Positions 1 through 50,436 of a stretch of DNA of 64,000 bases are shown here, piece by piece (within the stretch, counting starts at the first letter, position 1; each line of letters starts with the position of its first letter). The position numbers were made by a program, and so were the translations under genes. The stretch is from the NCBI GenBank assembly GCA_964187785.1, contig OZ076409.1, positions 70,682,001 through 70,746,000 of the forward strand, in the 5' to 3' direction. The notes beneath the pieces are model-generated. The model saw nothing but the letters and a program-made list of their open reading frames with translations. It was not told the DNA's origin and searched no databases. Source of the DNA: Amphiscolops sp. MND2022. Its lineage: Eukaryota.

Positions 1-218
1 AAAAAATGGTATTGATTGAATTGTATATAACAAGTAATAAAAGTTCAAATTGATTATTACGTTTCATTATTCAAGCTAAAACTTCATAACATAGTTTAAT
101 TAACGTCAACGCCACACACTTTACATCAACGCCCACCGTCTGTGGGCATGCCGAGGCATGCCCTTCGACGACATATACCAAATACATACCCAAACGACGC
201 CCGTACATCCCGGGCTAG

Positions 219-1529: not shown

Positions 1530-3500
1530 GTGCGGGGGGGAAACCCCAACAAATATATTGGAGGATTCGGGTAGGGTCCTGAATCCGATTTTAACTCTAA
1601 TAGCTATCGATAGGAAATCTTGCAAAAATTTCGGGATCTCGTGATCTAACCATAGGATTTTAAAGTTGGAGCGGCCCCCACCAGATTTTCCGAAAATTAG
1701 CGCCCCCCACCGGGTTCCATACCCCGGAAAATTTTTTTCTGGCCACACGGGCGACCGTTAGGGGGTCATTTTAGGGGTAAAATTCATATTGGGCCACATA
1801 ACTTTTTTTCTGTTGATTTAAAACTTTAGGACCCTGCTAAAAGTTTCTTGACCATGTTGCGGGGGCTCCGGAGGTCCAAACCAATTTTTTCTATCTTGAA
1901 GCTATCTCCAAGTACCCCCCCGCCCAAACCGTTATTTTTCCGGAAACGAAGGTCTTTGACCCGGAAGGAGTCGTCTGAGCGCGGGGTCGTTAGGTGATGT
2001 TTTGGGGACGGCCTTGAGACGAAGTGGGGGACATGTAGTTTGCCAACCTCAGTTTACCCCCCGGACGGGAAATGACCGTTATATGAGCGGCAAAAATGTC
2101 CCCCTCCACGTTTTACCGCTATTTCCGGTGTGAAGGAGTGGGAGTAGCGCGTCGGGTGCCATATATCAAAAGTAGGTTTAGACAAGGATCTATCGGAAAC
2201 ATGTGGTTTGGGACCCCCTGGACCAACCCGTTAGCAGGAAATGGGGCTTCCGGCCCGTTTTTTTACGGTTAAAAACGGAAAATGGGCATTGAGGGGTAAA
2301 TATCTCGTGAACGCGTGGAGCTACGGTGTCCTTCACTACTACAAGGTTTCATACCCATGATATGGTGCCTTCAGGGGGGCAAACAGATTTCCGCTATCTA
2401 TCACCGTTACGGACTTGGCCCCCCAGCCTAACCGCTAAGTGACCGGAAATGTCACTTTTTGAGCCCAAAGGGTCGGTCCCAGCCAGGGAACGTTAGATAA
2501 CTTATTGTAGTACTCATTGAGATGAGTTGGGGGACATAGTTTCAGTCACCCCCCGTTACCCCTTAAGACCGGAAATGACCGTTATGTGAGTAAAGTTGCC
2601 GTTTTTGTCCTATTTGAAGGGCATTTAGATGCGGAAGGAGTGGTAATAGGTGCTTGGACACTATATGAGGTAAGGGAGGATATGAGGCGAGCATTCGGAA
2701 ATAACCGTTATGTTGACCCCAAAGTCCCCGTGGTACCGTAAACGACCGGAAATGGTCAAATTTTCTGTTTATAGGGTACAAATGGTTGGTATTTTGTAGA
2801 TAAAAGTATCTATTAGGTGTTTCGACGGTCTGCAGTAGTGAACATAGTCATGAAACCTTGTGGGGGGTAACGGTATATAGCACCGGAAGTCCAAACCGTT
2901 GGAGACAAGATAGGTTTTTTGGTTTTAAAATGTCTTTCGGCGTACTTTTGTCGACTATTAAGGACTACTTTTAAAAATTAAAGTTTTTCCATATAGTTTT
3001 AGAGACTCCGAAACCTCAACCAACATAACCGTTACCTCATGATAGCCTTTCAAGTTGGCCTGGTGTCAACTTGGAAGGGCTATCCTTCAAAAATCGTCAA
3101 TCAAGTGTGTCTTTGGGTATGTTTGTATCATTTTAGAATCAAATAGAGCTTCAAGAAAAGTTTGCCAACGACAAAAACTATGTCGTGATGATTCCGTTAT
3201 TAGAATAATAGTTAGCAAATTGTTGAGAAAATTGATTTTTTCCATATAAAATGTGTCCTAATTGCCAGGAAACCTATTTAACTTACAAATGGTATTGATT
3301 GGAATGTATGTAACAGAGTTATAAAAGTTCAAATTGACTATTACGTTTCATTATGGAAGCTGAAACGTAATATTTTAGTTTAATTAACGTCAACGCCACA
3401 CACTTTACATCAACGCCCACCGTCTGTGGGCATGCCGAGGCATGCCCTTCGACGACGTATGGCAAATCCCTTCTAACGACGCCCGTACATCCCGGGCTAG
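1530..3500 (+). mobile_element. Unit, family B (1971 bp; GATAGCC-type internal hairpin)
   Basis: GTG start, CTAG end; hairpin 3041-3084; close copy at 60430-62404. Confidence 0.8.
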
Positions 3501-5496
3501 GTGCGGGGGGGTAACCCCAACTTTTTTCTTGGAGGAATCGGGTAGGGTCCTGATTCCGAGCTTAGTGCCGCCAGCTATCGTTAAAAACCCATACCTTTTA
3601 AACCCGATCTCGGGAACTAACCACGCCCCTTCTTTAATTTTTTGGCCCCCACTCACTTTTTGAGAGTAGATCGCCCCCCACTGGGTTCGATGTTGGGCAA
3701 AAATGGAGATCATGGGTAACGGGGACCGTTAAGGGGTAACTCAGGGGGTAAAATTTATTTTTTGCGTCATATCTTTTCCCCCCGTGGATTTAGCGCTTCC
3801 GGTCAGCAGACAAAACCTCATGTACGTGATAAGGGGCCTCCATAGGTCCAAACAAAATTTTTCTATCATGCACCGTTACGGACTTGCCCCCCCGGCCCAA
3901 CCGTTATTTTACCGGAAATTGCACTTTTTGACCGGGAAGGAGTCGTCTGAGCACGGAGTCGTTTGGTAATGTTTTGTAGTGCATCTGGAGACGTGTTGGG
4001 GGACATGTAGTTTGCCGATCCCAGTTTACCCCTCAGACGGGAAATGACCGTTATGTGAGTTTTGAAAATGCCCCCCTTCAATTTTCCCCGCAATTTCCGG
4101 TGTGAAGGAGTGGGAGTAGCGTGTCGGGTGCCATATATCTAAAGTAGGTTTAGACAAGGACCAACCGGAAACATGTGGTTTCGGACCCCCTGACCCAACC
4201 CGTTAGCCGCTATTAGGGTGATCGCCTCCTTTTTTTGCTGTCAAAACCGGAAAACGGGCATTGAGGGGTAAATATCTCGTGAACGCGTGGAGCAATCGTG
4301 TCCATCACTACTACAAGGTTTCATACCCATGATATGGTGCCTTCAGGGGGGCAAACAGATTACCGCTATCTATCACCGTTACCGACTTGGCCCCCCAGCC
4401 TAACCGCTATGCGACCGGAAATTGCACTTTTTGAGCCCAAAGGGTCGATCCTAGCCGGGCAACGTTAGGTAACATATTGTAGTACTCATTGAGACGAGTT
4501 GGGGGATCTATTTTCAGTCGCCCCCCGTTACCCCTTGAGACCGGAAATGACCGTTATGTGAGTAGAATTGCAATTTTTATACCTTTTGAAGGGCATTTAG
4601 GTGCGGAAGGAATGGTAATAGGTGCTTGGACACTATATGATGTAATGGAGGTTGTGAGGAGAGCATTCGGAAGTAACCGTTACGTTGACCCCAAAGTCCC
4701 CCTGGTACCGTTAACAACCGGAAATGGCCAAATTTTGTGTTTATAGGGTACAAATGTTTGGTATTTTATGGATAAAAGTACCTGGAAGGTGTTTTAAAGG
4801 CCTCCAGAAGTGAACATAGTCATGAAACTTTGTGGGGGGTAACGGTATATCGCACCGGAAGTCCAAACCGTTAGTTACAGAATAGATTTTTTGGTTTCAA
4901 AATGTCTTGAGGCGTAGTTTTGTGGGTTGAATCGTCATAATATCAACTAATACGGACTTTTTTCGGAAATAAAATTTTTTCACATTAGTTTCAGGGACCT
5001 CCAATGTTTCAGTCAACATAACCGTTACATTTTGATAGCCTTTCAAGTTGGCCTGGTGTCAACTTGGAAGGGCTATCCTTCTAAAATCGTTAATCAAGAG
5101 TGTTTTTGGGTAGGTATATGTTGCATTAGTACCAATTAGAGCTTCATCAACAGTTTGCCAACGGCAAAAACGATGTCGTGATAATTCCGTTATAAGAATA
5201 TTAATTAACAAATTGTTTCCAAAGTTGATTTTTTCCATTCGAAATGTGTCCTAATGCCACCAAATTGAATAAAATAATAAATGGTATTGACTAAAACTAA
5301 ATAACATTGAAAAAGAAGCTCAACATTTTTAATAGGTCTCATTATGGAAGCTGAAACCTCACGTTTTAACTTAATTAACGTCAACGCCACATACTTTACA
5401 TCAACGTCCGCCGTCTGTGGGCATGCCGAGGCATGCCCTTCGACGACGTATACCAAATTCCTTTAACACAACACCCCCGAGCGCGGTAGCAGCTAG
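3501..5496 (+). mobile_element. Unit, family B variant (1996 bp), last unit of the left array
   Basis: Close copy at 54478-56469; ends CTAG followed by non-array sequence GTATCAAC. Confidence 0.8.
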
Positions 5497-5539
5497 GTAT
5501 CAACATCCTCGAAAACAATCTGAAGAAATTGAATACTTT

Positions 5540-10684: not shown

Positions 10685-10897
10685 GTGAGTTTCGGTTATG
10701 CTACAAACATGCTGATAAGAATCTGTTCAATAAGAAACACATTGCTCCGTAAAAGCTTTGTTGTTTCAGCACGTGCGGTCCTTTTTAACTTTAACTCCAA
10801 TGCGTGAAATGTGAAATCGGCAGATCGCCTCAGAAAAAGAGGCCCATAACAAGTTCTGTGGAAACTTTTGTTAGCGATTGCTTCCACTGAACTTGAA

Positions 10898-14696: not shown

Positions 14697-14896
14697 NNNN
14701 NNNNNNNNNNNNNNNNNNNNNNNNNNNNNNNNNNNNNNNNNNNNNNNNNNNNNNNNNNNNNNNNNNNNNNNNNNNNNNNNNNNNNNNNNNNNNNNNNNNN
14801 NNNNNNNNNNNNNNNNNNNNNNNNNNNNNNNNNNNNNNNNNNNNNNNNNNNNNNNNNNNNNNNNNNNNNNNNNNNNNNNNNNNNNNNNNNNNNNNN
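14697..14896. other. Assembly gap (200 N)
   Basis: N run. Confidence 1.
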
Positions 14897-15688
14897 TTGA
14901 CCCCAAAGTCCCCCTGGTACCGGAAGTGACCGGAAATTGTCAAATTTTGTGTTTTTAGGGTACAAATGTTTGGTGTTTAATGGATAAGAGTGCCTATTAG
15001 GTGTTTCGACGGTCTGCAGTCGTGAACATAGTCATGAAACCTTGTGGGGGGTAACGGTATATAGCACCGGAAGTCCAAACCGTTGGAGACAGGATAAGTT
15101 TTTTGGTTTTAAAATGTCTTTCGGCCTACTTTTGTCGACTATTATGGACTATTTTTGGAAAATAAAGTTTTTCCATATAGTTTCAGAGACTCCGAAACCT
15201 CAACCAACATAACCGTTACCTTATGATAGCCTTTCAAGTTGGCCTGGTGTCAACTTGGAAGGGCTATCCTTCAAAAATCATTAATCCAGTGCGTTTTTGA
15301 GTATGCTTGTTTTACATTAGAATCAATTAGAGCTTCAAGAAAAGATTGCCAACGACAAAAACTATGTCGTGATGATTCCGTTATTAGAATAATAGTTACC
15401 AAAATGTTGATAAAGTTGATTTTTTACATTTCAAATATGTCCTAAATGCCAGAAAACCTCTTTACCAAACAAATGGTATTGATTGAATTGTATATAGCAG
15501 CTAATAAAAGTTCAAATTGAAGATTACCTTTCATTATGCAAGCTGAAACGTCATATTATAGTTTCATTAACGTCAACGCCACATACTTTACATCAACGCC
15601 CACCGTCTGTGGGCATGCCGAGGCATGCCCTTCGACGACGTATACCAAATTCCTCAAACACAACACCCTCGAGCGCGGTAGCAGCTAG

Positions 15689-18600
15689 GTGGTCAGTGCT
15701 GTTGCGTTCATTTTTTTCCGGCCGTGGGGGAGGGCCCCTCTGAGGCCGGTCATTTTTCAGGTAACAGCTTTCTTATACAAAAAAGCGGGAAAAAACCTCA
15801 GTGCTCAAATCCCAACCGTCAGAATGAGCTGAAATTTGGCATGTAGCTAGTGCATTGCAAATGATTAGGATGGGTTATAACGCTATGTTTGGCAAAATTG
15901 GTTTTGTTGCATTTTTTTTGTCATATAGGGCCAAAAATGGCCTTTTTTGCGTATTTTTTGCTTGACTAGCTAATAACTCGCGTTGGGTTGGTACTAGCGA
16001 TACGGGTGTGGGGTATGGAATTGAAAGATTACCAAGTACCTTGCTGATGACGTTATTTGATTTCCGCTCACATCACCCCCCACGCCGGAAATGCCCAATT
16101 TGTCACTTCCGGTCGCAATTTTTGACTTTTTTGGATGGAGTCAAAACCCATTTCCGGTGTGAAGGAGTGGGTTGAGCGCTTCGACCACGATATACTAAAA
16201 GTAGGTTTAGACAAAGTCCTATTAGGAAAAAAGTAATGTAAGCCCGTACCTATCACCCCCTCGCCGGAAATAGGGGTCACGCCTCCTTTTTCTGTGTTGC
16301 AAAAGTGACATGTGCACATTTGTCCAACTCCGAAGCCCCGGAGCACCGTGGGACCCTTATACTTTCTAAACACCTATCCCACACGCTACCGGAAGTGACC
16401 GGAAGTTTCACCGGAAATGACATCCTTGGACCGGAAATGGTCAAAAAATGACTTTTCAATGCAAAATAGACACATTTGGTGCGATTTTTAGGCAAAAAGC
16501 ATAGTTCGTGAAACGCTTGTTGCAGTTGGAAGGGCCATTGTTCAGCAAGAATGCGTACAGCATTACGTAGCACATCAAGTAGTTGATACTTTTTCGTCCA
16601 TAATATCCTTAGGACCGGAAATGGCCATTTTTGAATCGGAAACTTCTTCAGCTTGATTTTTAACAGGTTTTTCCGCAATATTAGCGTAGGAATTGCTCCT
16701 CGGATGCTGTAGGTCTATTTTAAAACTAGCTAACTGCTTCTTAGAAATGTATTTCAGAAGTCCCAACCAATTCCAGAATACCGGAAATAAGAGTAATTGC
16801 CTCCTTTATGACCTTTGAATAATAAAGTGTTAAAATCCGCATATTATTTTTTTCCACACTTGTTGCTGAGATTATATCTAAGCAATAACATGTGCTTGTC
16901 ATGAAGTGCTGTAATGTGGGAGTTACGAATATTGCTATTTAAGAGTATTACATACGTGAATATCCGCCGTAATAAAGATTTTTTAAAACAACCACTTTTG
17001 AAGTCCTATAGATTGTCCGCACACCCGAAACAATTCAAGTTTCTAGTTTCGATTTTAAGGCTTCCGCGACTATTTAGTTGAGATGATAGTTTTCACGTTC
17101 TCTGCAAAACGTGCATTTCATTGTGTTTTTGACATTTATTGGGCTGTTTCACATTGTAATTCAAAACTAATTGATCATACAATTTGGAACAATTGAAAAT
17201 TTTCAATTGAACATTAAATGTTTTAATAGTTTCTCTTTCGTTGAAGATACTATTTTGTGGCCATTAGAACAGGTTGAATTAGTTGAATAAGTAGCCAGTG
17301 CGATACATCGTTTAATACATAGCGTTTGACATCGGTTTTTTTGCGAACAAAGACAAGCATGATTTGTTGAAAGTTTTTACCATATCGCTTCAAATCGGGT
17401 GTGACAAACAAGGAATTTCTCGTTTTATGTGCTACTCCGAAAGCAACCTGAAAACGCAAATCGTTCTATTGAATTATCGAGATGAAACTAAGCATTTCAA
17501 GTCTGGATTTCAATTTAATTCTATCACTCCGGTCTATTTTTATGTCGCAAGAGTGATAAAGCGTGTTAGCAAGGTTAAACACATCGAACAATTTTAATAA
17601 TAAAGCCTCCGGAAAGGGAAGAAAAAATGAGTTTTCCTGTCAAAACTATGATAACCACGTACGAAACATCAAGTTTTTGTATTGTTCAATAGTCCAAAAC
17701 GTGAATGAAGTTTTTAAATATCCAAGCGTTTCTAATCAAGCATGCGTTTCAAATGTCTGACAGGGCAGCATAGTTCTCAAAAAACATTGCTTTCAATGTG
17801 GTTTGATACCAGCAAAACGAACGTAGGCACAACCAGATTCTCAAATTTCTTGCAAAACAGCCGATTTCTTTGAAAATCCTAATTGATTTCACAGGGTATA
17901 TGGTGAAACCCTGTTGGATTCCAAAAATGAAAAGCTGATTTCTTGGGTTTGCGAGATAAAAGACAACGGGAATCTGAAAGCAAGTCATCTCAATAAAATA
18001 CCTGTTGCTCTTTAAACAAATGGACTTTAGTAGTGGAAATTTTTTCTCAGACACTTTCGATCAGAGAATGTTTGAGTCCTAACGTTCGAATCAGGTTGGT
18101 TTCAGGTGGCTCGAAGTGCCAGCTGAACCAACCTTTCAAATAAAGAAAAACCCCACATCTCCCTTCATGCCACGCTACCCCGTATAGCGTTTCAACTTGA
18201 CAGAAGTTGGAACGTTTGATTTTGGCGTCGCTTGGGATTGACACACCAGTGTTGATACTAAATTTGGCAAAGAGAAATCGCAGAAATGATTGTTTCTTTT
18301 CTTCCCTTTGATTTAGTCTGTCGAGCGTACAAAGCAGTTTGGGAAACTAACTTGCATTTCCACTGAACGAAAAAAAGTAGTAGCCTTGCAAACTCCTGGA
18401 AGAAATTGAATCAGGTTTTCCTATTTGTGAGATCAGCTGTCACTCAATTATCAATTACTTTTTTAAAAATTTTTAGGAACAACTAACCTAACTCTGCTCG
18501 ACTCTCTTGAATAATGCAACAATCGTTTACTGATCTGTGCTCGTGAGAAAAAACTCAACTGCAGGCTCAAAAACAATCTATATGTATTTGGTTTATTCAC

Positions 18601-18759
18601 TGCAAAGCTTTTTTTCACACCATGTGACTCAACTATTACATGTATGTAATGAAACCAATAACACCTTCAACTATCAACGCCCACCGTCCGTAGGCATGCC
18701 GAGGCATGCCTTTCGACGACGCGCGCCGGAAACAATCTAACGGCGCCACCCGCTTCTGG
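15689..18759 (+). mobile_element. Unit, family C (3071 bp) with AT-rich cargo
   Basis: Ends CTGG; near-identical copies at 44294-47365 and 47366-50436. Confidence 0.85.
17250..18330 (-). pseudogene. Possible highly decayed DIRS/Crypton-type tyrosine recombinase remnant inside family C
   Basis: Minus-strand fragments in the expected order: FLRFLF, FEPPETNLIRTLGLK, CCPVRHL, RNSLFV, VSHWL..LI; many stops; catalytic residues not identifiable. Confidence 0.3.
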
Positions 18760-20029
18760 GTGGCCGTGTCTTTTCGACGTGCTTTTGCATTGAGGAGTGG
18801 GTAGGGCCCCGCGACGACCTAGAAGAATTGGATGCTCACCGAAACGTGCAGAATTCTACGAGATCTCATAGTTTGAGCCATACGACTTTTCTGAAATTTG
18901 GCATGTGGCCTGGAATTGGTGAGTAGGTAAAACGTGTAGGAGGTGATTTTTCCCAAATTCCACTGTGAGACGAGATATGGGCAAATAACGGTCCCAAAAA
19001 TGGCAAAAATGCACTTTTTTCAACTTTGTCAGCCCATATCTCGTTCCCAGGTGCCCGGAGCGGGACGCGTTAAGCTGATTATAAACTCTAGGGTGTTGAG
19101 GCTGTACGGGGAAGTCAGGCCCGTTCCGATCGGACTTGTAGTCTTGGAGAAATAACGGTATTTTTGGGGAACCTTTTCTAACGGTCCAGCTTATCTTTGC
19201 CATTTTTTCGAAAATGTACTCGCCTAAAGGCCTCCCCCTGGCCGAATTTACTCCCAGCAAAACCATTTGGCCCTAAATACGGAGTTTCAGCGTTCCAGCA
19301 TTCCCGGGCGAAAAGTTGTGGGACTTGGAAAATTTTCAAAAATTTTCAAAAATTTTTTTTTTCGTTTTCCGGGCCCCCAATGAAGGGGAAACGACCCCCC
19401 AACCAGTATTTTGAGTGAATTCATGTGGAAAGCCCTTGTTTTGACGAGAAAAATACCGTTTAGAACATCTTTTTATCTTGACTCAACGTTGACTTATGAC
19501 GTTTTGAATGTGATGTAAGGATGTAGGAGGCATGTGATAAGTTGATGTTTTGAGTCTTTATCTCATATGAAAGCGGTTGAGATGCAAGCTGTCCTGCTCA
19601 AAACGTCTTTCGTTGTAATTTTCCAGTGCACCAATACCCTTTGGTGTCATATAAACATACTTTTTGTCGATATATTAACAATTTTAATGTATTTATTCCA
19701 ATTTTTATTATCTTATAACTCAAAACAGTTGAGTACATTTCATCTCCCTTTCGGGGGAGATGAGAATGTACTCGCTAAAGACCTAGCGCCATGACCAAAA
19801 GTTTGAAACCCACGTTTTTTATCTTCTTACAGACTTGTTTTTGTATTTTTTCGGAATTTTTTAAAAATTAATATACTTGAAAAACATTACTTGACTTTAC
19901 TACTACAACCCACCTCCAACGACAACGCCCCCTGCTTGCATCAACGCCCCATCGTCCGTGGGCATGCCGAGGCATGCCCTTCGACGACGTATGCCAAATG
20001 CCCAGTGCCACGCAGTCTTTCCCCGCTAG
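18760..20029 (+). mobile_element. Unit, family D (1270 bp)
   Basis: Copy at 21333-22598; GAGTACATT hairpin. Confidence 0.8.
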
Positions 20030-21332
20030 GTGGCCACGACCATGGTTTCTTGCGTATCTTGTCGAATCCTTTGTCGTTGCCGGCCGGGGAGGGACCCGTT
20101 TGCCGGCGTGTGTAGTGTGGGGCCCCCATACCCAAAAAGTGGTATTTTTTTCAGAGATCTCAAAATCGGCCCGTCAGAATTGCCTGAAATTTGGCATGAG
20201 GCTCCCAATTGGGGAAAAAATAAGAAGTGTAGAGGGCGACTTGTTCGGGTAAATATTGTATGTTGACTTTTGGCCAAAAGAGTGTTCCCCCCCAACTTGG
20301 GCAAAATCACATGAGGTGTAAAAATATGATCACAACTTTTGAACCTTTGGATTTAGGGGTACGGTCGTGGACTACATTAAGCAAGAGCTTTGGTGCGCGG
20401 GTAGGATAGATGGGTTTTGATCCCAGTACCTTCAACCACTTTTGAGAAATTAACGTTTCAAACAAACATCCGGGAGGTATATGTTGCCCCTGAAGGCAGG
20501 TTTTTCGCCATTTTCAATGTGTTGGAGTGGGTTTAGCGTAACGTGTGTGGTGTGCTTTTTTGTTGCCCGTGTGCGGAGCGTTGTATAGAGGTGCTGGTTG
20601 TTGAAATTGGAAAAGCTGCTAAAAAGTTATACCTATACCCCCCCTACTGTCTCTGCCATTCAATTTTTTTTCAACTTCAGGCCTCCCAAAGGTGAGAAAC
20701 TTCCACACAACTAGTATTGCAAGTGAATGCATGTGGAAAGTACTCGGATAGACGAGAAAAATGAGCTATAGAACGACTCTGTAGCTTAACTTGACGTTGA
20801 CTTATGACATTTTGAGTGTGAGCTTGCTATGTGAGAAAAAAATTCAAAATTGAAAATCGAAGCCAAGTCTCATCCAAAACTCATCGAAATACGTTCAATC
20901 CATCCCAAAGCGGATTAATTCCAGATATATAGTGCAGCAACACTATTCAAGACCATTTGACACAATTTTACTAGTTTTGACATTGTATTATTCATCCGAG
21001 AGCACAAAACAGTTGGGTACATTCCATCTCCCTTTCGGGGGAGATGAGAATGTACCCGCTAAATGACACGCACCATGGCCTAATTTTTACCTTTATGCGA
21101 CGTTTTCTAGGCTTTCGCGCAAGCCCACTAATATTTACACTGGTTTCTTTCTCTTTCACTCCAAACATTCCGTCCGTACTAACCACCTTACACACCACCA
21201 GCAGCTCAACGACACATCTGTAACGTCAACGCCACATACTCGCATCAACGCCCACCGTCCGTGGGCATGCCGAGGCATGCCCTTCGACGACGTATGCCCG
21301 TTGTCACAACAGGGCGCCCCTACATTCTCTAG
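20030..21332 (+). mobile_element. Unit, family E (1303 bp)
   Basis: Copy at 35217-36520; GGGTACATT hairpin 21015-21057. Confidence 0.8.
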
Positions 21333-22598
21333 GTGGCCGTGTCTTTTCGACGTGCTTTTGCATTGAGGAGTGGGTAGGGCCCCGCGACGACCTAGAAGAA
21401 TTGGATGCTCACCGAAACGTGCAGAATTCTACGAGATCTCATAGTTTGAGCCATACGATTTTGCTGAAATTTGGCATGTGGCCTGGAATTGGTGAGTAGG
21501 TAAAACGTGTAGAAGGTAATTTTTCCCAAATTCCACTGTGAGACGAGATATGGGCAAATAACGGTCCCAAAAATGGCAAAAATGCACTTTTTTCAACTTT
21601 GTCAGCCCATATCTCGTTCCCAGGTGCCCGGAGCGGGACGCGTTAAGCTGATTATAAACTCTAGGGTGTTGAGGCTGTACGGTGAACTTGGGCCCGTTCC
21701 GATCCGACTTGTAGTCTTGGAGAAATAACGGTATTTTTGGGGAGGTTTTTCTAACGGTCCAGCTTATCTTTGCCATTTTTTCGAAAATGTACTCGCCTAA
21801 AGGCCTCCCCCTGGCCGAATTTACTCCCAGCAAAACCATTTGGCCCTAAATACGGAGTTTCAGCGTTCCAGCATTCCCGGGCGAAAAGTTGTGGGACTTG
21901 GAAAATTTTCAAAAATTTTCAAAAAAATTTTTTTCGTTTTTGGGCCCCCAATGAAGGGGAAACGACCCCCCAACCAGTAATTTGAGTGAATGCATGTCAA
22001 AAGCCCTTGTTTTGACGAGAAAAATACCGTTCAGAACATCTTTTTATCTTGACTCAACGTTGACTTATGACGTTTTGAATGTGATGTAAGGATGTAGGAG
22101 GCATGTGAAAAGTTGATGTTTTGAGTCTTTATCTCATATGAAAGCGGTTGAGATGCAAGCTGTCCTGCTCAAAACGTCTTTCGTTGTAATTTTCCAGTGC
22201 ACCAATACCCTTTGGTGTCATATAAACATACTTTTCGTCAATATATTAACAATTTTAATGTATTTATTCCAATTTTTATTATCTTATAACTCAAAACAGT
22301 TGAGTACATTTCATCTCCCTTTCGGGGGAGATGAGAATGTACTCGCTAAAGACCTAGCGCCTGACCAAAAGTTTGAAACCCGCGTTTTTTATCTTCTTAC
22401 AGACTTGTTTTTGTATTTTTTCGGAATTTTTTAAAAATTAATATACTTGAAATACATTACTTGACTTTACTACTACAATCCACCTCCAACGTCAACGCCC
22501 CACTGCTTGCATCAACGCCCACCGTCCGTGGGCATGCCGAGGCATGCCCTTCGACGACGTATGCCAAATGCCCAGTGCCACGCAGTCATTTTCGCTAG
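21333..22598 (+). mobile_element. Unit, family D (1266 bp)
   Basis: Copy of 18760-20029. Confidence 0.8.
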
Positions 22599-23993
22599 GT
22601 GGTCGGGTATTTTTTTTTACTCGTATATGACGTTTGCGAGGCTTTGGGGAGGGCCCCGTGCCGAGCCTGTTATCCGAAATTCACCACTACCAGATCTGGT
22701 ATAAATAAGCGAGATCTCGAAAACTATCCATTAGAATTCCCTGAAATTTTGCATGTGGCTCCTAATCAATGAGTAATGAAAAAGTGTAGGAGTGACGGTT
22801 GCTGAAAAAATTGTCTTTGTTGCACTTTTTGCGCATTTTTTGTCGCATTGTTGCGTTTTTTATGTCATTTTCCACTTTGGAGGCAAAAAAGTCATATATG
22901 CTTTGTTCCTAGCGTATCAAGTGTGGAGCACGAAAAGTTGCAGCATCTTTGATTACGTCTGCTGTGAAAATTTGGTTGCCCTCGGCTTACCCCCCACTGA
23001 GATAGAGGGGTGCTTCCGGTCTTTTTTGACCCCTAAGTTTGGGAAATTGCTAATTTTCGTAATAAAGCCGTAGATTTAGCGTGTGCACACCCTGCTGAAG
23101 ATTTGTTAGGCATTTTGAGATAGATCCAATGACATGCGTTCAGTTCACCCCCATCACCCCCTGGACCGGAAATAAACTTTTTTGTGTCCTTTCAGACCGG
23201 AAGTCTCCATTTTCAACGGTAAGGAGTCATTGTACGAGCAACTAGCAGGGCATCAAAATTGAAGTACAATGTGGGGTGAGCCAAGTTACCACCTGTTGTC
23301 CAGTCATGGGTACCGCCATGACCGGAAATGGGGTCAAACCCCCCCTATTGGTCATTTTTTTATCAGTTTGACTTGTGTTTGGTCCACATACAAGTCGGGT
23401 AATGCAATTGAACCAGTGTGAGCATAAACTACACGTTCACTGCGTAGCCGTAAATGACACTGACAGATACCGGAAGTAACCCCTTGTGACCGGAAGTTGT
23501 CAATTTTGACCGGAAATGGCCCAAAAAGTAGCGTAAAAGCAGTTTTTCATTAGTTTTAGAGGTATTTCTTTTTACTTTTTCTACGCTGATTGATTTTTTC
23601 TACTCACAAAGCTAAGATCGTGGCTTGTTTGGCTAAAGTTCTGAAAAATGATCACCTTTATCACCCCCGATAGCCTTTCAAGTTGACCTTGGGTCAATCT
23701 TGAAGGCTATCAGTTCAGAAAACGAAAAATAGTGGAAATTGGGTTTCTCCTTTTCGTTGTTATTTTTTCCATAAAGTCAATTTGTTAAATAAGGCTTTTG
23801 TTCACCTGAGTGATCTGAAACTTGTCCAGAGGTGTCACACACACGAAAACCATTTCAAGTTGAAGTAAACATATGAGGGTAGTATTAGACAACATCACAC
23901 ACACTTACCAACGCCCACCGTCCGTGGGCATGCCGAGGCATGCCCTTCGACGACGTATGCCAAATAGCGCCACAGGGCGCCCCCATTTGCTAG
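22599..23993 (+). mobile_element. Unit, family F (1395 bp)
   Basis: GATAGCC hairpin 23669-23711; distantly similar to families H and L. Confidence 0.8.
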
Positions 23994-26009
23994 GTGGTCG
24001 GGGTTTTCTCCCCACCTTTATTTGCGAGCGCGGGAGACGGGTCCTGTCGCGAGCCTTAGATACCAAAAATAGCCTATCCGCGACCGGGTCAAAAAAATGC
24101 GATCTCGAAAACTAGCCGTACGATTCGGCTGAAATTTGGCACACGGCTTCCTATAACAGTTCTAAGAAACATTTACTACTGACGTTTTGCTGGCAAAAAT
24201 CGAAAAGTGGGTCAAAATAACGGTTTTTGGGGTAAAAAGTAGCGTTTTTTTGAAAATTTTGCATTTCACAGCCAATTACTCGAAAATGGTCGATCCAGCG
24301 CAGTAACGCCTTGCTGATTTATTGTTGGGCACGTCAAGAAGCGTACGTACACAAATTTTGGTCCATATCGGACTGAAACTTGGGGAGATATTAACGGTAG
24401 TTTGGGGGTTTCAAACCGCTATTTTACCGGAAATTGCACTTTTTGACCGGGAAGGAGTTGTCTGAGTGCGGGGTCGTCTGGTAATGTTTTGTAGAGCATC
24501 TGGGGACGTAGTGGGGGACATGTAATTTAATGACCCCGGTTAACCCCTCGGACGGGAAATGACCGTTATGTGGGTTTTAAATGTGGCCCCCGCCAATTTT
24601 CCCCGTTATTTCCGGTGTGAAGGAGTGGTAGTAGCGCGTCGGGTGCCTTATATCAAAAGTACGTTTAGACAAGGACCTATTGGAAACATGTGGTTTGGGA
24701 CCCTTTGAACGGACCCGTTAGCCGCTAATGGGGTGACTGCCTCCTTTTTTTGGGGGTAAAACCGTAAAACGGGCATTGAAGTGAAATTAACTCGTGAACG
24801 CGTGGAGCTATCGTGTCCTTCACTACTACAAGGTTTCATACCCATGATATGGTGCCTTCAGGGGGGCGAACAGATTTCCGCTATCTATCACCGTTACGGA
24901 CTTGGCCCCCCAGCCTAACCGCTATGTGACCGGAAATGTCACTTTTTGAGCCCAAAGTGTCGGTCCCAGCGTGGCAACGTTAGGTAACCTATTGTAGTAC
25001 ACATTGAGACGAGTTGGGGGATTTAGTTTCAGTCACACCCTGTTGGCCCGTTAGGTCGGAAATGACCGTTATGTAGTGAAAAATGGGATTTTTATAGTTT
25101 TTGAAGGCCATTTCGGGCAGGAAGGAGGGGTAATATGACTTTGGACACCATATGATGGAAGACGTGAAGTGTGACCAGCATTCCGGATTAACCGTTATGA
25201 TGACCCGGAAGTCCCCCTGGCACCGGAAATGACCAAAAAAATGTAACATTTTGTGTTTTTTGATTAAAAATGTTTGTTATTTAACCGAATAAAGTACATG
25301 TTAGGTGTTTCAATTTCTTCCAGAGGTGAATATAGTCCAATTACATGGTGGGGGGTAACGGTATATTGCCCCGGAAGTCCAACCCGTTGGGTCTGAGTAT
25401 GTTTTTCGGGTTTTAAAATGTGTCAAAACGTACTTTTGTGTAATAAATCTCTATTGTAGGCTAATAAGGACCATTTTTGAAGAGTTTAAATTTTTTCATA
25501 GTAGTTTGTGGAACACCAAAAACTTAAATAACATAACCGTTATAATTTGATAGCCTTTCAAGTTGGCCTTGTGTCAACTTGGAAAGGCTATCCTTCAAGA
25601 CTCATGCAACAAAGAAGTTTTTGGGTACATTTGTAATGCTTTAGTGTCAATTAGAGTATCAACAAGAGTATACCAAGCACTAAAACTATGTCTAGTTTTC
25701 GTTATTAGGATATTAGTTTCCTGAATATTTGTCGGAAATGCTTTTTTAAATCTCTTTTAATGTGGTCTAAATACTCTGAAAACACTTTATCGAACCAATT
25801 TTCTTGGATGAACCTTAGTAACAATACTAAAAATCGTAGACAACCTTGCTTCGTTTAAATATTTGAAGCTGAAACCGCACCTTACCGTTGCTCAAACTTC
25901 AACCCGACGCCCCATAGCATACATCAACGCACATCGTCTGTGGGCATGCCGAGGCATGCCCTTCGACGACGTATGCCAAATACCTTTAACCCGACGCCCG
26001 CAGTCCTGG
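23994..26009 (+). mobile_element. Unit, family G (2016 bp)
   Basis: Ends CTGG; near-identical copy at 31812-33827; core related to family B. Confidence 0.85.
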
Positions 26010-27079
26010 GTGGTCAAGGGGGATGCCCATCAGAAAATATTGCGAGGCCGGGGAGGGTCCCGAGAGCCGAGCACATTCTATCAATTCCTACCTTCAGGAT
26101 TGCGAAGTATTTTAACCGATCTCGAAATTCACCCGTAGGATTTGTCTGAAACTTTGCATGTGGCTTTATCTGAAAAATTTAAGAACTTTTTTCTGCTGAC
26201 GTTTTTCCAGGAAAATTCATTTTGTAGGGTTTTTTTGCGTTTTTTTGGTTTTTTTCATCTTTGTTCATCTTTGATTAATCAATGACCGAATCAAAGGCCA
26301 TTTTCACCATGAAGGAAAGCCCGTAGCGGCAAAGTGCACTTTTATGAAAATCATCAACGGTCAACGGTCTTTCGAACGGTCCAAAAAAATTTCCCCCCGG
26401 GGGCAACCAAAGTGCCGAAAAGTGCCAAATTTATTTTTTTGACTGAATCACTTTGATCAAATTGATGATTTGAGCAGCCAGAACGGTCCGCACGGTCTCG
26501 GACAATAAGGTCAAAAATTGTCAGCATCCAATGGGGGTTCCAAAAATGTAATTCGTTCACCTGTAGGAGACATCTGAAAAAAGTTGATTTTTTGGAGTTT
26601 TGGCATTATGACTGATCGGATGATAAATCATTGCATCACGTTGAGTTGCATTTGATGCAGCACACGAAGCAGCTGCAGCGAACTTGAAACTACTTAGGGG
26701 GTTGTGGTTTACTATCTGTAACAAGCAAAATATCCCTTGGGCAAAAGGTATGCCAAAAAGTGCCTCAAAGTTTTAATTAAGTTGTTGCAAATCGGCTAGC
26801 AAAATTCATTGTCACCGGTGTTCCGTGAGTTGCGCAGCATCTCGCGGGAACAACGGTGCTTGTTTCGAACGCAAAACCCAACATACCTCTTTGGTGACGT
26901 GACGGAGGTCACCATTAGCCTTTTTCGGCAGTGTGATGATATTTTTTTTGTTGAATTGTGAAAAACATACACAAAAGATTTAGCGTGGGATATTTGTTTG
27001 TGTCATACTTCAGTAACAAACTTTCAACCGTTTTGCTTAGGCCTCTACCTAGCAGTGCTCTAAATCGCTCCATCGCTAG
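26010..27079 (+). mobile_element. Atypical unit M (1070 bp) lacking the terminal hairpin
   Basis: Normal head motifs and CTAG|GTG end, but no GGCATGCC block; 5' half similar to the next unit. Confidence 0.6.
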
Positions 27080-30000
27080 GTGGTTGGGGCGTTATTCCCC
27101 ACGAAGTTCGCGGCCGCGGGAGACGGGACCCGCGGACCGCCCATCCAATGCAAAAATATACACTCTAAACAGCACCATTATAAACACGATCTCGAAAATG
27201 AACCGTAGGATTGTCTTGAAATTTTGCATACGGATAGAAGAGAAAATTCTAAGAACTTTTTCCTGCTGGCACTTTTCCGAAAAAAATGTCCTTCATGTGT
27301 TTTTTTGGGTTTTTTTGTTTTTTTCTCATCTTTCTCATCTTTGATTAATCAATCACTGAATCAAAGGCCATTTTCAGCATGAAGGAATGCCCGTAGCGGC
27401 AAAGTGCACTTTTACAAAAATCATCAACAGTCAACGGTCTTTCGAACGGTCCAAAAAATTTTCCCCCGGGGGGCATCCAAAGTGCCGAAAAGTGCCAAAA
27501 TATTTTTTTTGTCTGAATCATTTTGATGAAATTGTTGATTTGAGCAGCAGGAACGGTCCGCACGGTCTCGGACCATAAGGTCAAAAATTGTCAGTGAGTT
27601 ATGGTGACGACCAAAATGACATTGGTTGAGCTGTAGGAGGCCTCTGAAAAAATTTGAATTTTTTGAGTCTACAATCCGAGCTGAACTGTTACGTATTATG
27701 AACTTTTCAGTACTATGTTGCCAATGACCGAGTACAGATAGATGCATGGGTCAGCCTTATTGAAATGAACATTGGGCACTGGGCTACCGATTGAGTACAA
27801 AAATTATAGCCTAGTTGCTGTAGTCGAAGAAAAAAATTCTCAGAAGTGTTACTTTCAATTTGTCATGTTGACTCGGAGTTACAAAAAGGTGATTTTCTCG
27901 CCAACAACGGTCCGAAAGGTCTTCGACCATGAGATCAAAAATTGTCAGTGTGCTATGGTGACGCCCAAAAACCTACCGGAACAAGCGTAGGATGCTTCTG
28001 AAAAAATTTCGAATTTTTACGTCGGCCCAAGAGTTATTGTGTTACATCGTAACAACTTTTCGTGTATGCATATCTCCTGACAGAGTACAGATAGCATCAT
28101 GGGTCACCTTTATGAAAGTGAACGTGGGCCACTGGTGAACTGCATGGTTATAAAAAATTTAGACTAAGTGCTGCACGGCGTGAATAATATGCCAAGATGT
28201 GTTATTTACGATATTTTAGCACGACTCGGACTGACAAAAAGCCTATTTCTGCCCCAGCAACGGTCCAAACGGTCATCAAGTGTAAGGTCAAAAAATGTCA
28301 GTGTGACATGATGGCGCCTAAAAACCCACCAGAACATTGGTAGGAAGCTTCTGGAAAAAATTCGAATTTTTACGTGGGCCCGAGAGTTATGATGTTGCAT
28401 CGTAGCAACATTTCGTGTATGCATATCTCCTGACAGAGTACAGATAGCATCATGGGTCACCTTTTTGAAAAAGAACGTGGGCCACTGGTCTATCGATTGG
28501 TTGTAAAAAGTTTTCAATCACTGCTGCACGGCGTGAATAATATGCCAATATGGGGTATTTAGCATTTTTTTGCACGACTCGGACCTACAAAAGTCCCATT
28601 TCTGCTCCACCAACGGTCCGTACGGTCTTCAACCATAAGGTCAAAAAGTGTCAGTGTGCTATGGTGACGCCCAAAAACCCACCAGTACACTTGTACAGTG
28701 CTTCCGAAAAATGTTGGAATTTTTAGGTGAGTCCGAGAGTTATAGAGAGTTATGTTGTCACATCGTAACTACATTTCGGGAATGTATATCTCCTGACACA
28801 GTACAGATACCAATATGGGTCATCTTTTGGAAAGTGAACGTGGGCCACTGGCCTACCGAATGATGATAAAAAGTTTTCACCAGTTGCTACAGGGAGTGAT
28901 AAAAGTGCTTACATGGGTTACATAGCATTTTTTCAGGCGACTCGGACTTACAAAAAGCTCATTTGCTCGCGAACAACGGTCTGTACGGTCTCCACTCAAT
29001 GGGTCGAAAATTTTTTGTGGGCTATGGTGACGCTCAAAAACCCATCAGTTTACTTGTGGGATGATTCTGTAAAAATTTAGTGTTTCCGTGCAGACTATGT
29101 TACATATTACATTGGGAACCGTGTTTTTTTCTCACCAAAATCATGTTTTTGAGTGCCCAAAAACAATTTTTAAAGCCCAGTAGCCACCTAAAATGTTCTT
29201 TTGCATAACATGGGATGTGAATAACGTGAAGAAAGTGCTCACTGTGGATTTGGAGTTATCTCGAAAAAATCAGCTGCCATTAGACGTTACATTACATAAA
29301 ATCGTTCCTTACATATCGATTCATGGGTTGAGTCAAAAACAGCTAAAGTTCTTTTTCAGTCAATTAAGACACTTTACTGTTCACAACCAAGTGTACAGCT
29401 GACGTCGAACCTATTTGACCTTTCACAATGGTTATAGTTCAATTTTGAAGTACAAAAGCCTCTTTGACAAACAAAATTCCATGATGAAATTGCTTTCCAA
29501 ATCATTTTTTGAAGTATAGGAACGCCATTTTTAGCCGAGAACCATCTAATATCCACTTCTCTTGGCCCAGTGGCTTGTGAAAAATACAACTGGGCATTGA
29601 CAAGGCACAAGGACCTTACTTCGAGTAGTAATGTGCCACAATATTTGCTAATCGATAGCAAATTTTGTTGAAAATTGATACAACATCACATTTTTGGTGG
29701 ACTCGAAATGACAAAATGGAGCTTCAGCAGCAACTATTGGCTTTTAGTGCAACTCACTGGCACTGTAGCTTACGAAAATACGGTTTACAGTAGTTTCATG
29801 CTACTTTTTCAGAATCTGAGGTACATAAAAATATCATACTGAATAGACATATAACTTCCACATCGGAATTTTTCCGGATGTGTCACCGCTTTTTTGGTAT
29901 CAGCGGTCCTACCAACACTGTTTTTGGTCTAACACTAAACCCGAAGATCAACGAAGGTGTATATCAGACTTGTAAAATCAATGCAAGGACTTTCGACATG

Positions 30001-31811
30001 TCAAAAGTACTGATAAGAAGAGAAACTTCTCAAAAATTCATGTTATGTGTCATATTCCATTCCACGTTTTTTAATCGGTGCTTGTCGGTTATAGTATTAA
30101 CGCTCAGCAACGAGGTTACTGACAAGATACAACTTGTTAACAGTTATTAAAAGTATTTATAATACCACCTTGCTCGGTCTTGGCACATTTTTCATCCCAT
30201 TCAGTCTTAACGTGTAAATTTTACTTCCCAAAAACCCTATTTTTGTCAGGTCGAAATTCGAATTTTTGTGTTTTGATCAATATTATTGTGTCTGACGTAA
30301 CCTGTGGCCTCCAAAATACTCAAAAACAATAGTATGACTGCTATCAAATGCTTCAGTGATATGTGGGGCACGTTAACACGTTTTGGTAGGAACAATTCCA
30401 CTTTGAAGTGAAAATTTGGAAGACACATTGTGTCAATAAAAACTGAATAGGTGAAAAACGTACCTAACTCTCGTCAATTAGTATTAATGTAGTAACTGTG
30501 TTGCGAATTAGAGGTCTATAGAGTGGTGTATGGGAAAACTGTGGCGCATAAAGCGTTGTTCATAACAAAGTTCTTCCAGTAACTACTATTGTGTTTTCAA
30601 AAGTTTCACTATATTTCACATATCCACAGAATGTGATTGATGCTACCTAGTAATGGAAAACCACAGTCGAATCTTCTTTAGTGGACTCAACAGTCCTGAA
30701 AATCACAGACATCAATCATGTTTCATAATTATACGATCGAGGCTACACAATAATTTATTTCCGCTAGTTTCTGATAACTGAATTTCCTGATAGCCTTCCA
30801 AGTTGGCCTTGTGTCAACCTGGGAAGGCTATCAGTACAAAACACAAAGAACACAGCTTGTTGTTGCCTTTAATTTGCTGTTGTTTTCGTTAAGATTCTAT
30901 GGTACCGTCTCTTTATAACATGTGGTTAACATAAGACAATTTCTCTCGGTATGGAACGACATCCATTGATAAGAAAGATTACAGTTTTTTAGTTGAAAAA
31001 GACCTTGAAACTACTGCGCAATTCATGCAATTCATCCAAAAAGCTCAATAATTTCAATACTTTGCGTCCCATTGAGCGTCACGAACCACAATACTCCCTT
31101 TAACTGACAGTACAAAGACACATCATCATTTGACCGTCCACAGAGCGAAGGCGTGGCGAGGCACGCCTTTCGAAGTCCTTTGGCAAAAAAGTACTAACGT
31201 CCGTTCGTGACGCATACGAAAAACTCTTTTCATTTCAACAATCGTCATAAAGCATATTCGTTATATCGTCTTTTGGTTACATTTGTGCAGTGATACCTTT
31301 ATCAGTGAAATATTAAGTTATACCTAGGTAACAGCAGTTACTTCGTGATTACCAAAGTGATATCAAAATGTTGTTACATAAATATTTCTGACAGCGGAAT
31401 TCCGAAGTGTCATTAGGTACTTTTGCAGTGCTCGTTAGGAAAGCGAGTACTTTTGCTTGGACCAAACATGCTTGTATCAGATTGGTCATGTGAAGGCAGG
31501 TAACGGAATCAAAACAATGTTCCTCATCAACTTTTTGGTAGGGTCAGAAACACAATGTTTCCTTTTTACCGTCCCCCAATTGTTTGTTAGCTTCTGTTCA
31601 TAGAGAATTGTTTCTGCGCAGACCAAAATATAGCAACTTATCCAATACGCCTGATATCGGTTTTGCCCCACACAGAACTATCACTTAACATTTTTGTATG
31701 TTGACATCTTTTTACCCCGTAGTTCAACAACTCATGCACCTTCATTTCTTCTTCAACAACTAACTCGCCACCTCCGTGTCGTCTCGTGGTTTGTTTAGCC
31801 TCCAGCGCTAG
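27080..31811 (+). mobile_element. Atypical long unit N (4732 bp)
   Basis: Head motifs; internal ~353 bp tandem repeats; GATAGCC hairpin 30789-30832; divergent terminal-type hairpin 31146-31172. Confidence 0.6.
27550..29090 (+). repeat. Diverged tandem repeat, period ~353 bp, a little over 4 copies
   Basis: aacggtc...ggtc...tcRaaaa anchor at about 27552, 27906, 28259, 28612, 28975. Confidence 0.8.
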
Positions 31812-33827
31812 GTGGTCGGGGTTTTCTCCCCACCTTTATTTGCGAGCGCGGGAGACGGGTCCTGTCGCGAGCCTTAGATACCAAAAATAGCCTATCCGCG
31901 ACCGGGTCAAAAAAATGCGATCTCGAAAACTAGCCGTACGATTCGGCTGAAATTTGGCACACGGCTTCCTATAACAGTTCTAAGAAACATTTACTACTGA
32001 CGTTTTCCCGGCAAAAATCGAAAAGTGGGTCAATATAACGGTTTTTGGGGTAAAAAATAGCGTTTTTTTGAAAATTTTGCATTTCACAGCCAATTACTCG
32101 GGACTGGTTGGTCCAGCGCAGTAACGCCTTGCTGATTTATTGTTGGGCACGTCAAGAAGCGTACGTACACAAATTTTGGTCCATATCGGACTGAAACTTG
32201 GGGAGATATTAACGGTAGTTTGGGGGTTTCAAACCGCTATTTTACCGGAAATTGCACTTTTTGACCGGGAAGGAGTTGTCTGAGTGCGGGGTCGTCTGGT
32301 AATGTTTTGTAGAGCATCTGGGGACGTAGTGGGGGACATGTAATTTAATGACCCCGGTTAACCCCTCGGACGGGAAATGACCGTTATGTGGGTTTTAAAT
32401 GTGGCCCCCGCCAATTTTCCCCGTTATTTCCGGTGTGAAGGAGTGGTAGTAGCGCGTCGGGTGCCTTATATCAAAAGTACGTTTAGACAAGGACCTATTG
32501 GAAACATGTGGTTTGGGACCCTTTGAACGGACCCGTTAGCCGCTAATGGGGTGACTGCCTCCTTTTTTGGGGGGTAAAACCGTAAAACGGGCATTGAAGT
32601 GAAATTAACTCGTGAACGCGTGGAGCTATCGTGTCCTTCACTACTACAAGGTTTCATACCCATGATATGGTGCCTTCAGGGGGGCGAACAGATTTCCGCT
32701 ATCTATCACCGTTACGGACTTGGCCCCCCAGCCTAACCGCTATGTGACCGGAAATGTCACTTTTTGAGCCCAAAGTGTCGGTCCCAGCGTGGCAACGTTA
32801 GGTAACATATTGTAGTACACATTGAGACGAGTCGGGGGATTTAGTTTCAGTCACACCCTGTTGGCCCGTTAGGTCGGAAATGACCGTTATGTAGTGAAAA
32901 ATGGGATTTTTATAGTTTTTGAAGGCCATTTCGGGCAGGAAGGAGGGGTAATATGACTTTGGACACCATATGATGGAAGACGTGAAGTGTGACGAGCATT
33001 CCGGATTAACCGTTATGATGACCCGGAAGTCCCCCTGGCCCCGGAAATGACCAAAAAAATGTAACATTTTGTGTTTTTTGATTAAAAATGTTTGTTATTT
33101 AACCGAATAAAGTACATGTTAGGTGTTTCAATTTCTTCCAGAGGTGAATATAGTCCAATTACATGGTGGGGGGTAACGGTATATTGCCCCGGAAGTCCAA
33201 CCCGTTGGGTCTGAGTATGTTTTTCGGGTTTTAAAATGTGTCAAAACGTACTTTTGTGTAATAAATCTCTATTGTAGGCTAATAAGGACCATTTTTGAAG
33301 AGTTTAAATTTTTTCATAGTAGTTTGTGGAACACCAAAAACTTAAATAACATAACCGTTATAATATGATAGCCTTTCAAGTTGGCCTTGTGTCAACTTGG
33401 AAAGGCTATCCTTCAAGACTCATGCAACAAAGAAGTTTTTGGGTACATTTGTATTGCTTTAGTGTCAATTAGAGTATCAACAAGAGTATACCAAGCACTA
33501 AAATTATGTCTAGTTTTCGTTATTAGGATATTAGTTTCCTTAATATTTGTCGGAAATGCTTTTTTTAATCTCTTTTAATGTGGTCTAAATACTCTGAAAA
33601 CACTTTATCGAACCAATTTTCTTGGATGAACCTTAGTAACAATACTAAAAATCGTAGACAACCTTGCTTCGTTTAAATATTTGAAGCTGAAACCGCACCT
33701 TACCGTTGCTCAAACTTCAACCCGACGCCCCATAGCATACATCAACGCACATCGTCTGTGGGCATGCCGAGGCATGCCCTTCGACGACGTATGCCAAATA
33801 CCTTTAACCCGACGCCCGCAGTCCTGG
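31812..33827 (+). mobile_element. Unit, family G (2016 bp)
   Basis: Copy of 23994-26009. Confidence 0.85.
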
Positions 33828-35216
33828 GTGGTTGGGGCGGTCCCCAGAACGCACAAGGAGGCGCGGGGAGGGTCCTGCGCCGACGTAGAATAATTTCATA
33901 TAATACTAGTATCCTACATGGGTGTTTTAGAGGCGATTTTGGAATCTAACCGTAGGATTTGGATAATTTTTTGCATGCGGCCATAACTCGAAATTCTAAG
34001 AACTTTTTCCTACTGTCATTTTCCCCGCAAATTGTTTTTTGTTGACTTATGGCCGAAAAACCGGAAATAACGTCCTTTTTAGACGTTATATCCGAAGTGT
34101 CGTCATAACTTTTTTCCAGGGCATGCTAGCGTTCTCGTTCACTTTTACACTTAGTTGCAGCATCTCAAAATACAACTGGTGGAAAATTTTGGTTGCATTC
34201 GGATCACCCCCCACCGAGATAGAAGGGTTCCCCCCTCCAGTTTTACCCCCCAAATTTGCAAAATAGCCAATTTTGAGCATGAAGCCGAGGATTTAGCGTA
34301 CCCGCACCCTCCTGATGTTTTGTTGTACGTATTGGGGTCAATCTGACGACATGTGTGGTTTTCACCCCCAACCCCCCCTTGGACCGGAAATGACACTTTT
34401 TTGTGTTTTTTGGCAGAATTTAGCCTTTTTCATTATTAGGCAGTCGTTTTAGGGACTCCTAGCAGGATATCGAAATTGAAATACAACCTGATCACAACCC
34501 AGTGACAACATGTTGGCCACTTGGAGGTATCATCATGACCGGAAGCGGGGTCAACCCCCCTTTTTGTGACCGCTTTTTGACCTTGTGCACCAAAATGCCA
34601 ACATCTTGAGGCCTAATGAGGCATTCAAATCTGTACAAAGATAAAATGTTAGACAACCGAAGTCCCGGAAGATCTTTAGCATATACGGGAAGTTACCCCC
34701 CATGACCGGAAGTTACCCAATGTGACCGGAAATGGTCCAAAAATTAATGTAAAGTTGAATTTTTCACTATTTCAAGACCACTTCATTGAACATTTCCTTT
34801 CCCAAAACTAGCGTACTGGCTTGTTTTGCTGAATTTGTGGAAATTGATGAGCTCTATCACCCCCGATAGCCTTCGAAGTTGACCTTGCGTCAACTTTGGA
34901 GGCTATCGATAAAGAAAAATGAACAACAAAGTACATTGTTGCTCTCGTTCTTTTCCCGTTGTTTTTCCTCAAACATTCTTGAGACATATACATGGCCGTT
35001 AGTTGAAATCAATATTTAGCCCATGTTATAGCTGGAGCAGCGAAGCGTTACACAGACTAGTGTGGTTTTGAAATCACACTATTTAAATTAACAACTGACC
35101 GTCTTAGTCAACTCCACACATTCATACCAACGCCCACCGTCTGTGGGCATGCCGAGGCATGCCCTTCGACGACGTATGACGAATCCATTCCAACGACACC
35201 CGCAGTCCTCAGCTAG
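33828..35216 (+). mobile_element. Unit, family H (1389 bp)
   Basis: Copy at 51708-53096; GATAGCC hairpin 34865-34907. Confidence 0.85.
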
Positions 35217-50200: not shown

Positions 50201-50436
50201 CGTTTACTGATCTGTACTCGTGAGAAAAAAATCAACTGCAGGTCCAAAAACAATCTATATATCTTTGGTTTATTCCGTGCAAAGCTTTTTTTCACACCAT
50301 GTGACTCAACTATAACATGTATGTAATGAAACCAATAACACCTTCAACTATCAACGCCCACCGTCCGTAGGCATGCCGAGGCATGCCTTTCGACGACGCG
50401 CGCCGGAAACAATCTAACGGCGCCACCCGCTTCTGG
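44294..50436 (+). mobile_element. Two tandem family C units (44294-47365; 47366-50436)
   Basis: Near-identical to 15689-18759; CTGG|GTG junctions. Confidence 0.85.

Follow-up and report, generated by a model that had tools for sequence, protein, structure and literature searches.

Cassette arrays in which unlike units stand in shuffled order and in one orientation, joined at a short conserved site, are familiar from the integrons of bacteria. In the 64-kb window analysed here (the whole stretch of DNA, 64,000 nt), units likewise lie head to tail in a single orientation with their families in shuffled order; in contrast to integron cassettes, however, these units are gene-less, 1-5 kb long and have no attC-like fold that pairs the core. 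What follows draws on the window itself, a single related contig and published work. The eukaryotic systems that come closest are transposons and composite satellites. Rolling-circle elements form tandem arrays, and there is a third clade of Helitrons, which has a target of its own (PMC9341512, PMC13085455, PMC5753468). Helitron1/HLE1 elements (PMC11417382, PMC3627910, PMC5148889) share with the units the lack of inverted ends, a 3' hairpin, head-to-tail stacking, internal tandem repeats, a possible 3' bypass and, in one register within the window, CTRR-like last bases. They differ in that the units start GTG or TG and not TC, that the target is apparently not A^T (unit joints being G-G, G-T or T-G), that the hairpin lies 41-56 nt from the end as against 10-12 nt in HLE1, that a related contig (L002, described below) has CGAG, and that 14 families are interleaved at one junction type. 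On start, target, box distance and the CGAG of L002, together with the absence of asymmetric inverted repeats, the units are not a canonical Helitron; a RepHel-encoding partner with the same ends is absent from the window.

Helitron2/Helentron/HINE elements (DINE-1-like; PMC4067079, PMC5148889) offer hairpins near both ends, non-coding bodies of 1-3 kb, central repeats, a T start in one register, and self-insertion as reported in Fusarium; their asymmetric or subterminal inverted repeats of 8-15 bp are absent from the units, which also have no TT or T-rich target and are joined exactly and invariantly. Cryptons (PMC3212892, PMC13465315) resemble the units in having no inverted ends, with the 4-bp sequence possibly a terminal direct repeat, but the window holds no recombinase, there are no dyad arms at the core, the 5' end is structured in a single-strand-like manner, and mixed arrays were not found described in the accessible text of these two papers; for CryptonV, the literature searched gave the name alone and no description. 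Replitrons (PMC10288648) share HUH logic, orientation-specific insertion and a subterminal hairpin, and their short terminal direct repeat is compatible with the joints seen here; their reported hosts are plants, algae and protists, the units here do not have fuzzy ends, and no Y1 HUH transposase is present in the window. The composite satellites of Meloidogyne (PMC3694981) also shuffle unlike units in one orientation at a short conserved joining site, although exchange there is proposed to take place in the conserved box and here lies outside it, and the units here are 1-5 kb long. Three further groups differ: the units do not have the inverted terminal repeats plus internal complementary region, or the split direct repeats, of DIRS/Ngaro elements, the terminal inverted repeats of cut-and-paste DDE elements (MITEs), or the 3' A or simple-repeat tail and 5' truncation of non-LTR retroelements and SINEs. 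The layout could not be matched to any described transposon family, and the ends fail the tests of each eukaryotic transposon group that could be checked. The literature searched held no description of mixed arrays with such junctions; Repbase and Dfam, where much of this class is solely described, lay outside that search.

Two arrays are present, and the coordinates of units and junctions that follow are on the + strand. Array 1 (1..5496) consists of a partial unit followed by A, B and B, its left end lying outside the window; array 2 (14897..64000) holds 26 complete units between two partial B units, one beside an N gap (14697-14896), the other at the end of the window. The 29 complete units, of 1070 to 4732 bp, fall into 14 families at 85% identity and 22 at 95%; the closest copies are 96.7-99.1% identical and have different neighbours in every case. 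Unit C (15689..18759, 3071 bp) has copies at 44294-47365 and 47366-50436 (98.7-99.0%), unit D (18760..20029, 1270 bp) a copy at 21333-22598 (97.2%), and unit G (23994..26009, 2016 bp, ending CTGG) a copy at 31812-33827 (99.1%). Like units are adjacent six times as against 1.9 by chance (P = 0.006), and families A, K and B are internal mosaics; homologous exchange acts inside related units and accounts for the runs of like units. No heterodimer is repeated among 27 adjacencies, with 1.25 expected (P = 0.25), which is merely no sign of block duplication. Internal tandem repeats occur with a period of about 500 bp in B and G (1916-2591 and homologues) and of 353 bp in I. Internal hairpins of two types lie about 200-400 bp before the conserved 3' box that is described below, one type in A, D, E, K, L and M and the other in B, F, G, I, J and N (for example 19721-19779, 23669-23711, 30787-30834 and 34864-34908); unit C has neither.

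Units H and I depart from the others at their 3' ends. Unit H (26010..27079) has a normal 5' end, carries no box and ends CGCTAG. Unit I (27080..31811), also with a normal 5' end and with its 353-bp tandem repeat at 27870-29075, has a degenerate box (31108-31198) with no core after it, and then continues for about 600 bp to a CGCTAG end. A CTAGGT at 31324, 157 nt past this degenerate box, lies in a short palindrome and is followed by no 5' end. The tails of H and I are unrelated beyond about 14 terminal bases (a local score reached by 22% of the background), and are either read-through captures halted at a cryptic GCTAG site, or host flanks marking hidden left edges, or another type of end. 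As a 99% identical copy of G follows I, an insertion does not require a box on its upstream side.

The window is eukaryote-like DNA, and between the arrays it contains a piece of an Fcf1/Utp23 host gene (10262-10807, +; Pfam 5e-12), whose protein relatives are 63-99% identical, with named nematode proteins at 48-53%. A 232-aa frame (7960-8658, +), which we take to resemble the end of a LINE reverse-transcriptase ORF, gave no real Pfam match. Short dispersed MITE-like repeats occur in both orientations (5731-6040, 7719-7936, 10893-10968, 11457-11631), and a 175-bp duplicate of 75% identity is found at 11974-12148 and 14521-14695, one copy adjoining the N gap.

All 31 junctions of the window carry CT(A/G)GGT on the + strand (26 as CTAG and 5 as CTGG), an invariance that is partly by construction at the array edge and at the two junctions without a box (27076 and 31808), the junction list having been compiled through a search for CTRGGT. 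The sequence after CT(A/G) is GGTG at 30 of the 31 and GGTATC at the remaining one, the sole array edge within the window (5493..5498), which reads CTAGGT|ATC and passes there into non-element DNA. CTRGGTG is found 31 times on the + strand of the window, 30 of these being junctions, and never on the - strand, with about 5.5 per strand expected from base composition. The preliminary description had placed the exchange inside GGTG, and inside GGT if the array edge is counted, on the grounds that the purine of CT(A/G)G goes with the upstream unit and the bases after GGTG with the downstream one; both grounds hold. At the C|D junction (CTGG-GTGG, 18756..18763), where the window reads CTGGGTGG, the exchange interval GGTG occupies 18759-18762. 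Its left bound is given by two CTGG-ending families only, C (3/3 copies) and G (2/2): D starts identically after CTGG (18756) and CTAG (21329), as had been described, and the same is now seen for C after CTAG (15685, 44290) and CTGG (47362) and for J after CTGG (33824) and CTAG (51704). The right bound comes from four comparisons of similar upstream units that part directly after CTAGGTG, namely 21329/36517, 37809/44290, 43000/44290 and 15685/62401, so that the E|D junction (CTAG-GTGG, 21329..21336) serves both bounds, with 18756 for the left and with 36517 for the right. At the edge, divergence follows directly after CTAGGT (5493 compared with 56466), and the narrowing from GGTG to GGT depends on this single edge.

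The exchange point is ambiguous over GGT(G) at most; as this interval consists of the bases common to all ends, it does not amount to a demonstrated homology core of 3-4 bp. The junction pattern is identical for one nick placed at CTRG^GT, CTRGG^T or CTRGGT^, and a crossover in a 3-4 bp core, or a 3-4 bp duplication at a fixed target, also leaves one GGT(G) per junction. Depending on the register chosen, unit starts are GTG, TG or G and the joints G-G, G-T or T-G. A reading of the units as introns (GT...AG) was rejected because GG stands in place of AG at 5 of the 31 junctions, those of the young families C and G.

A conserved palindromic box stands 41-56 nt upstream of the core at 29 of the 31 junctions, in 29 exact or near-exact copies on the + strand, every one of which is followed at that distance by CTRGGT; the spacings are not helically phased. 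In unit C the box lies at 18674..18721, with its palindrome at 18692-18711 and an outer 4-bp stem pairing 18685-18688 with 18715-18718. Changes within the palindrome are compensatory and Watson-Crick only (6 cells in 2 pairs), with no G-U pairs among them, and none of 500 shuffles paired as many cells, the sequences being related to one another. Such Watson-Crick-only changes would suit a binding site with a double-stranded dyad equally well. Between box and core lies a family-specific linker (18722..18755 at the end of C), which moves with the upstream unit: in seven of eight pairs of units at least 96% identical, it stays with the upstream unit at 90-100% identity, the exception being a B pair (3501/54478) in which the units are 96.7% and the linkers 75% identical. 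As the linker stays upstream, the joints between families were not formed in the box, which counts against homologous shuffling and mis-assembly there.

The 5' ends are the stricter of the two. A loop motif, GGG-(A/T)AGGG-(C/T)CC (18799..18810 in D, where the stem itself is weak), lies 42-46 nt from the core in 27 of the 30 starts, 52 nt in F and 61 nt in both copies of E (97.8% identical), and a second motif, GATCTC ... TGAAATTTGGCA (18862..18903 in D), is common to most families at about +103 to +160. The loop is conserved and the stems are family-specific, with the families' own arms giving -8.4 kcal/mol and swapped arms -5.7. In 14 of 18 sequences, no more than 5 of the 17 swaps did as well as or better than the own arms, a result which is not a probability because the families are related; D, G and N do not pass the test, and J gives a middling result. 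With RNA parameters the + strand of the stem-loops folds better in 17 of 18, an outcome which G-richness favours. In profile scans, the full 5' signature is present at 30/30 internal junctions, as against 2/31 box-less 3' ends; no solo or nested ends were found in the window save the degenerate box in I, and none of the 30 starts belongs to a 5'-truncated unit. No internal complementary region was seen in the 14 families, the longest internal match to the terminal 30 nt being 5-10 nt. A small hairpin at +6 to +20 scored better than shuffled sequences at the 5% level in just 2 of 21 distinct starts and is not counted as evidence.

The units are non-coding elements with no coding capacity. No transposase family was matched by any of 97 stop-to-stop frames of at least 62 aa, for which each family was represented by one or two units, and a set of 35 longer frames likewise gave no such match for those that lie in units. 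No Rfam match reached the gathering score over the window, and 18500-24300 gave only two weak chance matches; known ribozymes and group II intron domains are therefore unsupported. The box patterns had no match in viral contigs. A match in a prokaryotic genome (L004), a hairpin behind a tRNA-like sequence, was dropped as chance, as were three others (L001, L003 and L005) that had nothing beyond the search pattern in common with the window. The contig mentioned above, L002, is a 1172-bp metagenome sequence about 65% similar to the units of the window, and it shows the same architecture: box, linker, CGAG-GTGC and then the same loop motif. Since GGTG is retained there and CGAG stands in place of CTRR, the invariance of the junction does not extend to CTRR. 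Its junction (880-887) is nearest to the M-then-J junction of the window (51704) on both sides, by small margins and at about 65% identity.

In considering what could build such arrays, the units are likely mobile elements, and we infer all of the enzymatic steps that follow. Our leading reading, to which we give a probability of roughly 0.42, is that they are non-autonomous elements released from and re-inserted at their own junctions by an HUH (rolling-circle) enzyme acting in trans. An enzyme encoded elsewhere would cut a single strand at one fixed bond within GGT, positioned by the 5' stem-loop about 44 nt downstream, so that existing junctions would double as release site and insertion site. 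Copying from one junction to the next would release a single-stranded circle of one unit, which could enter a different junction, since the signal is present there as well; the 3' box, not strictly required, would serve as terminator or accessory site. Structure kept without sequence, unphased spacings, a single orientation, a 5' end stricter than the 3' end, and a joint for which G^T is a possible reading all point to single-strand nick-and-join chemistry. The exchange interval is no wider than 4 bp, and the linker of 41-56 nt stays with the upstream unit. The asymmetry between 5' and 3' ends would be as expected from terminator bypass, which is known in rolling-circle transposons, and HUH relaxases recombine DNA at their own nick sites (PMC5714925). 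HUH transposons in general combine orientation-specific insertion with terminal hairpins (PMC10288648), and both Helitron groups begin with T and insert before T (PMC3627910, PMC11417382). The nick predicted is G^T, with units that would begin TG and insert before T; this register, together with the edge, satisfies both the T start and the insertion before T. In the CTRG register, the upstream ends fit CTRR in 26 + 5 of 31, partly by design of the search, but as the two matches need different registers they cannot both count. Against an HUH enzyme stands its absence from the frames scanned, and no circle, solo copy, left array edge or empty site was seen.

The main rival, which we consider doubtful, holds that the units are Crypton-like non-autonomous elements, excised as circles by a tyrosine recombinase and integrated by crossover in GGT(G) microhomology, the substrate being either double-stranded DNA or, as in integrons, folded single strands. 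It owes this place to GGTG, which fits a 4-bp direct repeat and is retained in L002, and to the box, a perfect dyad maintained by compensatory changes. Cryptons have no inverted ends, carry direct repeats of 4-6 bp that represent target microhomology, and have been proposed to move as circles (PMC3212892, PMC13465315), and should the tails of H and I prove to be host DNA, GCTAG-GT would be the sequence of the target itself. GGTG falls within the 4-6 bp range inside the arrays, but at the single edge the core is only 3 bp; moreover, inverted arms around the core are absent for 11 choices of spacer (mean 2.2-3.9 of 12), which counts against a classical tyrosine-recombinase site, the spacings are unphased, the window holds no recombinase, and tandem Crypton arrays were not found in the accessible portions of the same papers. 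An RNA-mediated route is distinctly improbable: structured non-coding RNAs would be copied by a site-specific non-LTR reverse transcriptase, by template jumping or by insertion at the junction, with GGT(G) as a short target duplication. Stem-loops maintained by structure and not by sequence would suit it, as would the better folding of the + strand, for which G-richness offers another reason, and a duplication would agree with the single core at each junction; against it, no A-tails or simple-repeat tails occur at the 3' ends of the units, none of the 30 starts is 5'-truncated, no Rfam family is matched in the window at the gathering score, and the box changes include no G-U pairs.

The preliminary description had read one short core per junction as suiting conservative recombination or an HUH nick site and as speaking against DDE transposases and LINE insertion. 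That argument is invalid alone, because fixed-site insertion with a 3-4 bp duplication also leaves one copy per junction, and one core per junction does not discriminate between mechanisms; other results nevertheless weaken both excluded routes (inverted ends and A-tails are absent, and the 5' signature is intact at 30/30 internal junctions), and site-specific nick-and-join or conservative recombination still fits best. DDE transposons that have no obvious inverted ends, prefer CTRGGTG as their site and duplicate 3-4 bp there would produce a formally identical junction pattern, but we hold them to be very unlikely: terminal inverted repeats are absent in all five registers (inverted identity 2.1-3.9 of 12 nt), subterminal or asymmetric ones are absent as well (the longest inverted match between a unit's own ends is 5-8 nt, mean 6.2 against 6.4 for non-self ends), and the 31 junctions share one strict orientation. 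IS607-like serine recombinases act at a GG core, and such a dinucleotide lies inside the exchange interval; IS607-like Fanzor2 elements, furthermore, are without inverted ends and duplications (PMC3627910). An enzyme of this kind acting at GG is nevertheless hardly probable here, as family-specific direct repeats common to a unit's two ends are absent (6.2 nt for self against 6.3 for non-self) and no such enzyme is encoded in the window. Satellite-like shuffling by homologous or illegitimate recombination at the conserved box, which has been proposed for the Meloidogyne satellites, or mis-assembly at this shared box, draws on the adjacency of like units, on the mosaics in A, K and B and on the B pair with the 75% linker. 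We rate it as very improbable, since a crossover or mis-join in the box of about 50 bp would send the linker with the downstream unit, whereas it stays upstream in seven of eight pairs; repeated heterodimers are absent (at the P = 0.25 given above), the junction motifs of Meloidogyne measure 17-20 bp in monomers of about 170 bp (PMC3694981), and L002, an independent record, has the same architecture. For the joints between families, box-driven shuffling is already disfavoured.

The most suitable place for the units is probably among the non-autonomous DNA transposons, as an unclassified variant that targets its own junctions; they look recently active and are common to at least one other record, L002. 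If the partner proves to be an ordinary RepHel or a Crypton recombinase, the locus would be a more modest result, though still a clear instance of self-targeting. It is unlikely that the arrays represent a eukaryotic cassette-array system without described counterpart, in which a new HUH or tyrosine-recombinase lineage uses the junction as a regenerating attachment site. If this were true, many unrelated cassettes would be set free, put into new order and stacked at loci dedicated to them, in the manner of bacterial integrons, and an animal lineage would hold a structure-guided integration system for programmable cargo that works on 3-4 bases. The combination of 5' stem-loop, box and GGT core may serve as a search key for the enzyme, one that would join unrelated cargoes of several kilobases at a few fixed bases. 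If the units do target their own junctions, they would follow a safe-haven strategy through which large mixed arrays are built, and complex satellite-like DNA may form along this route.
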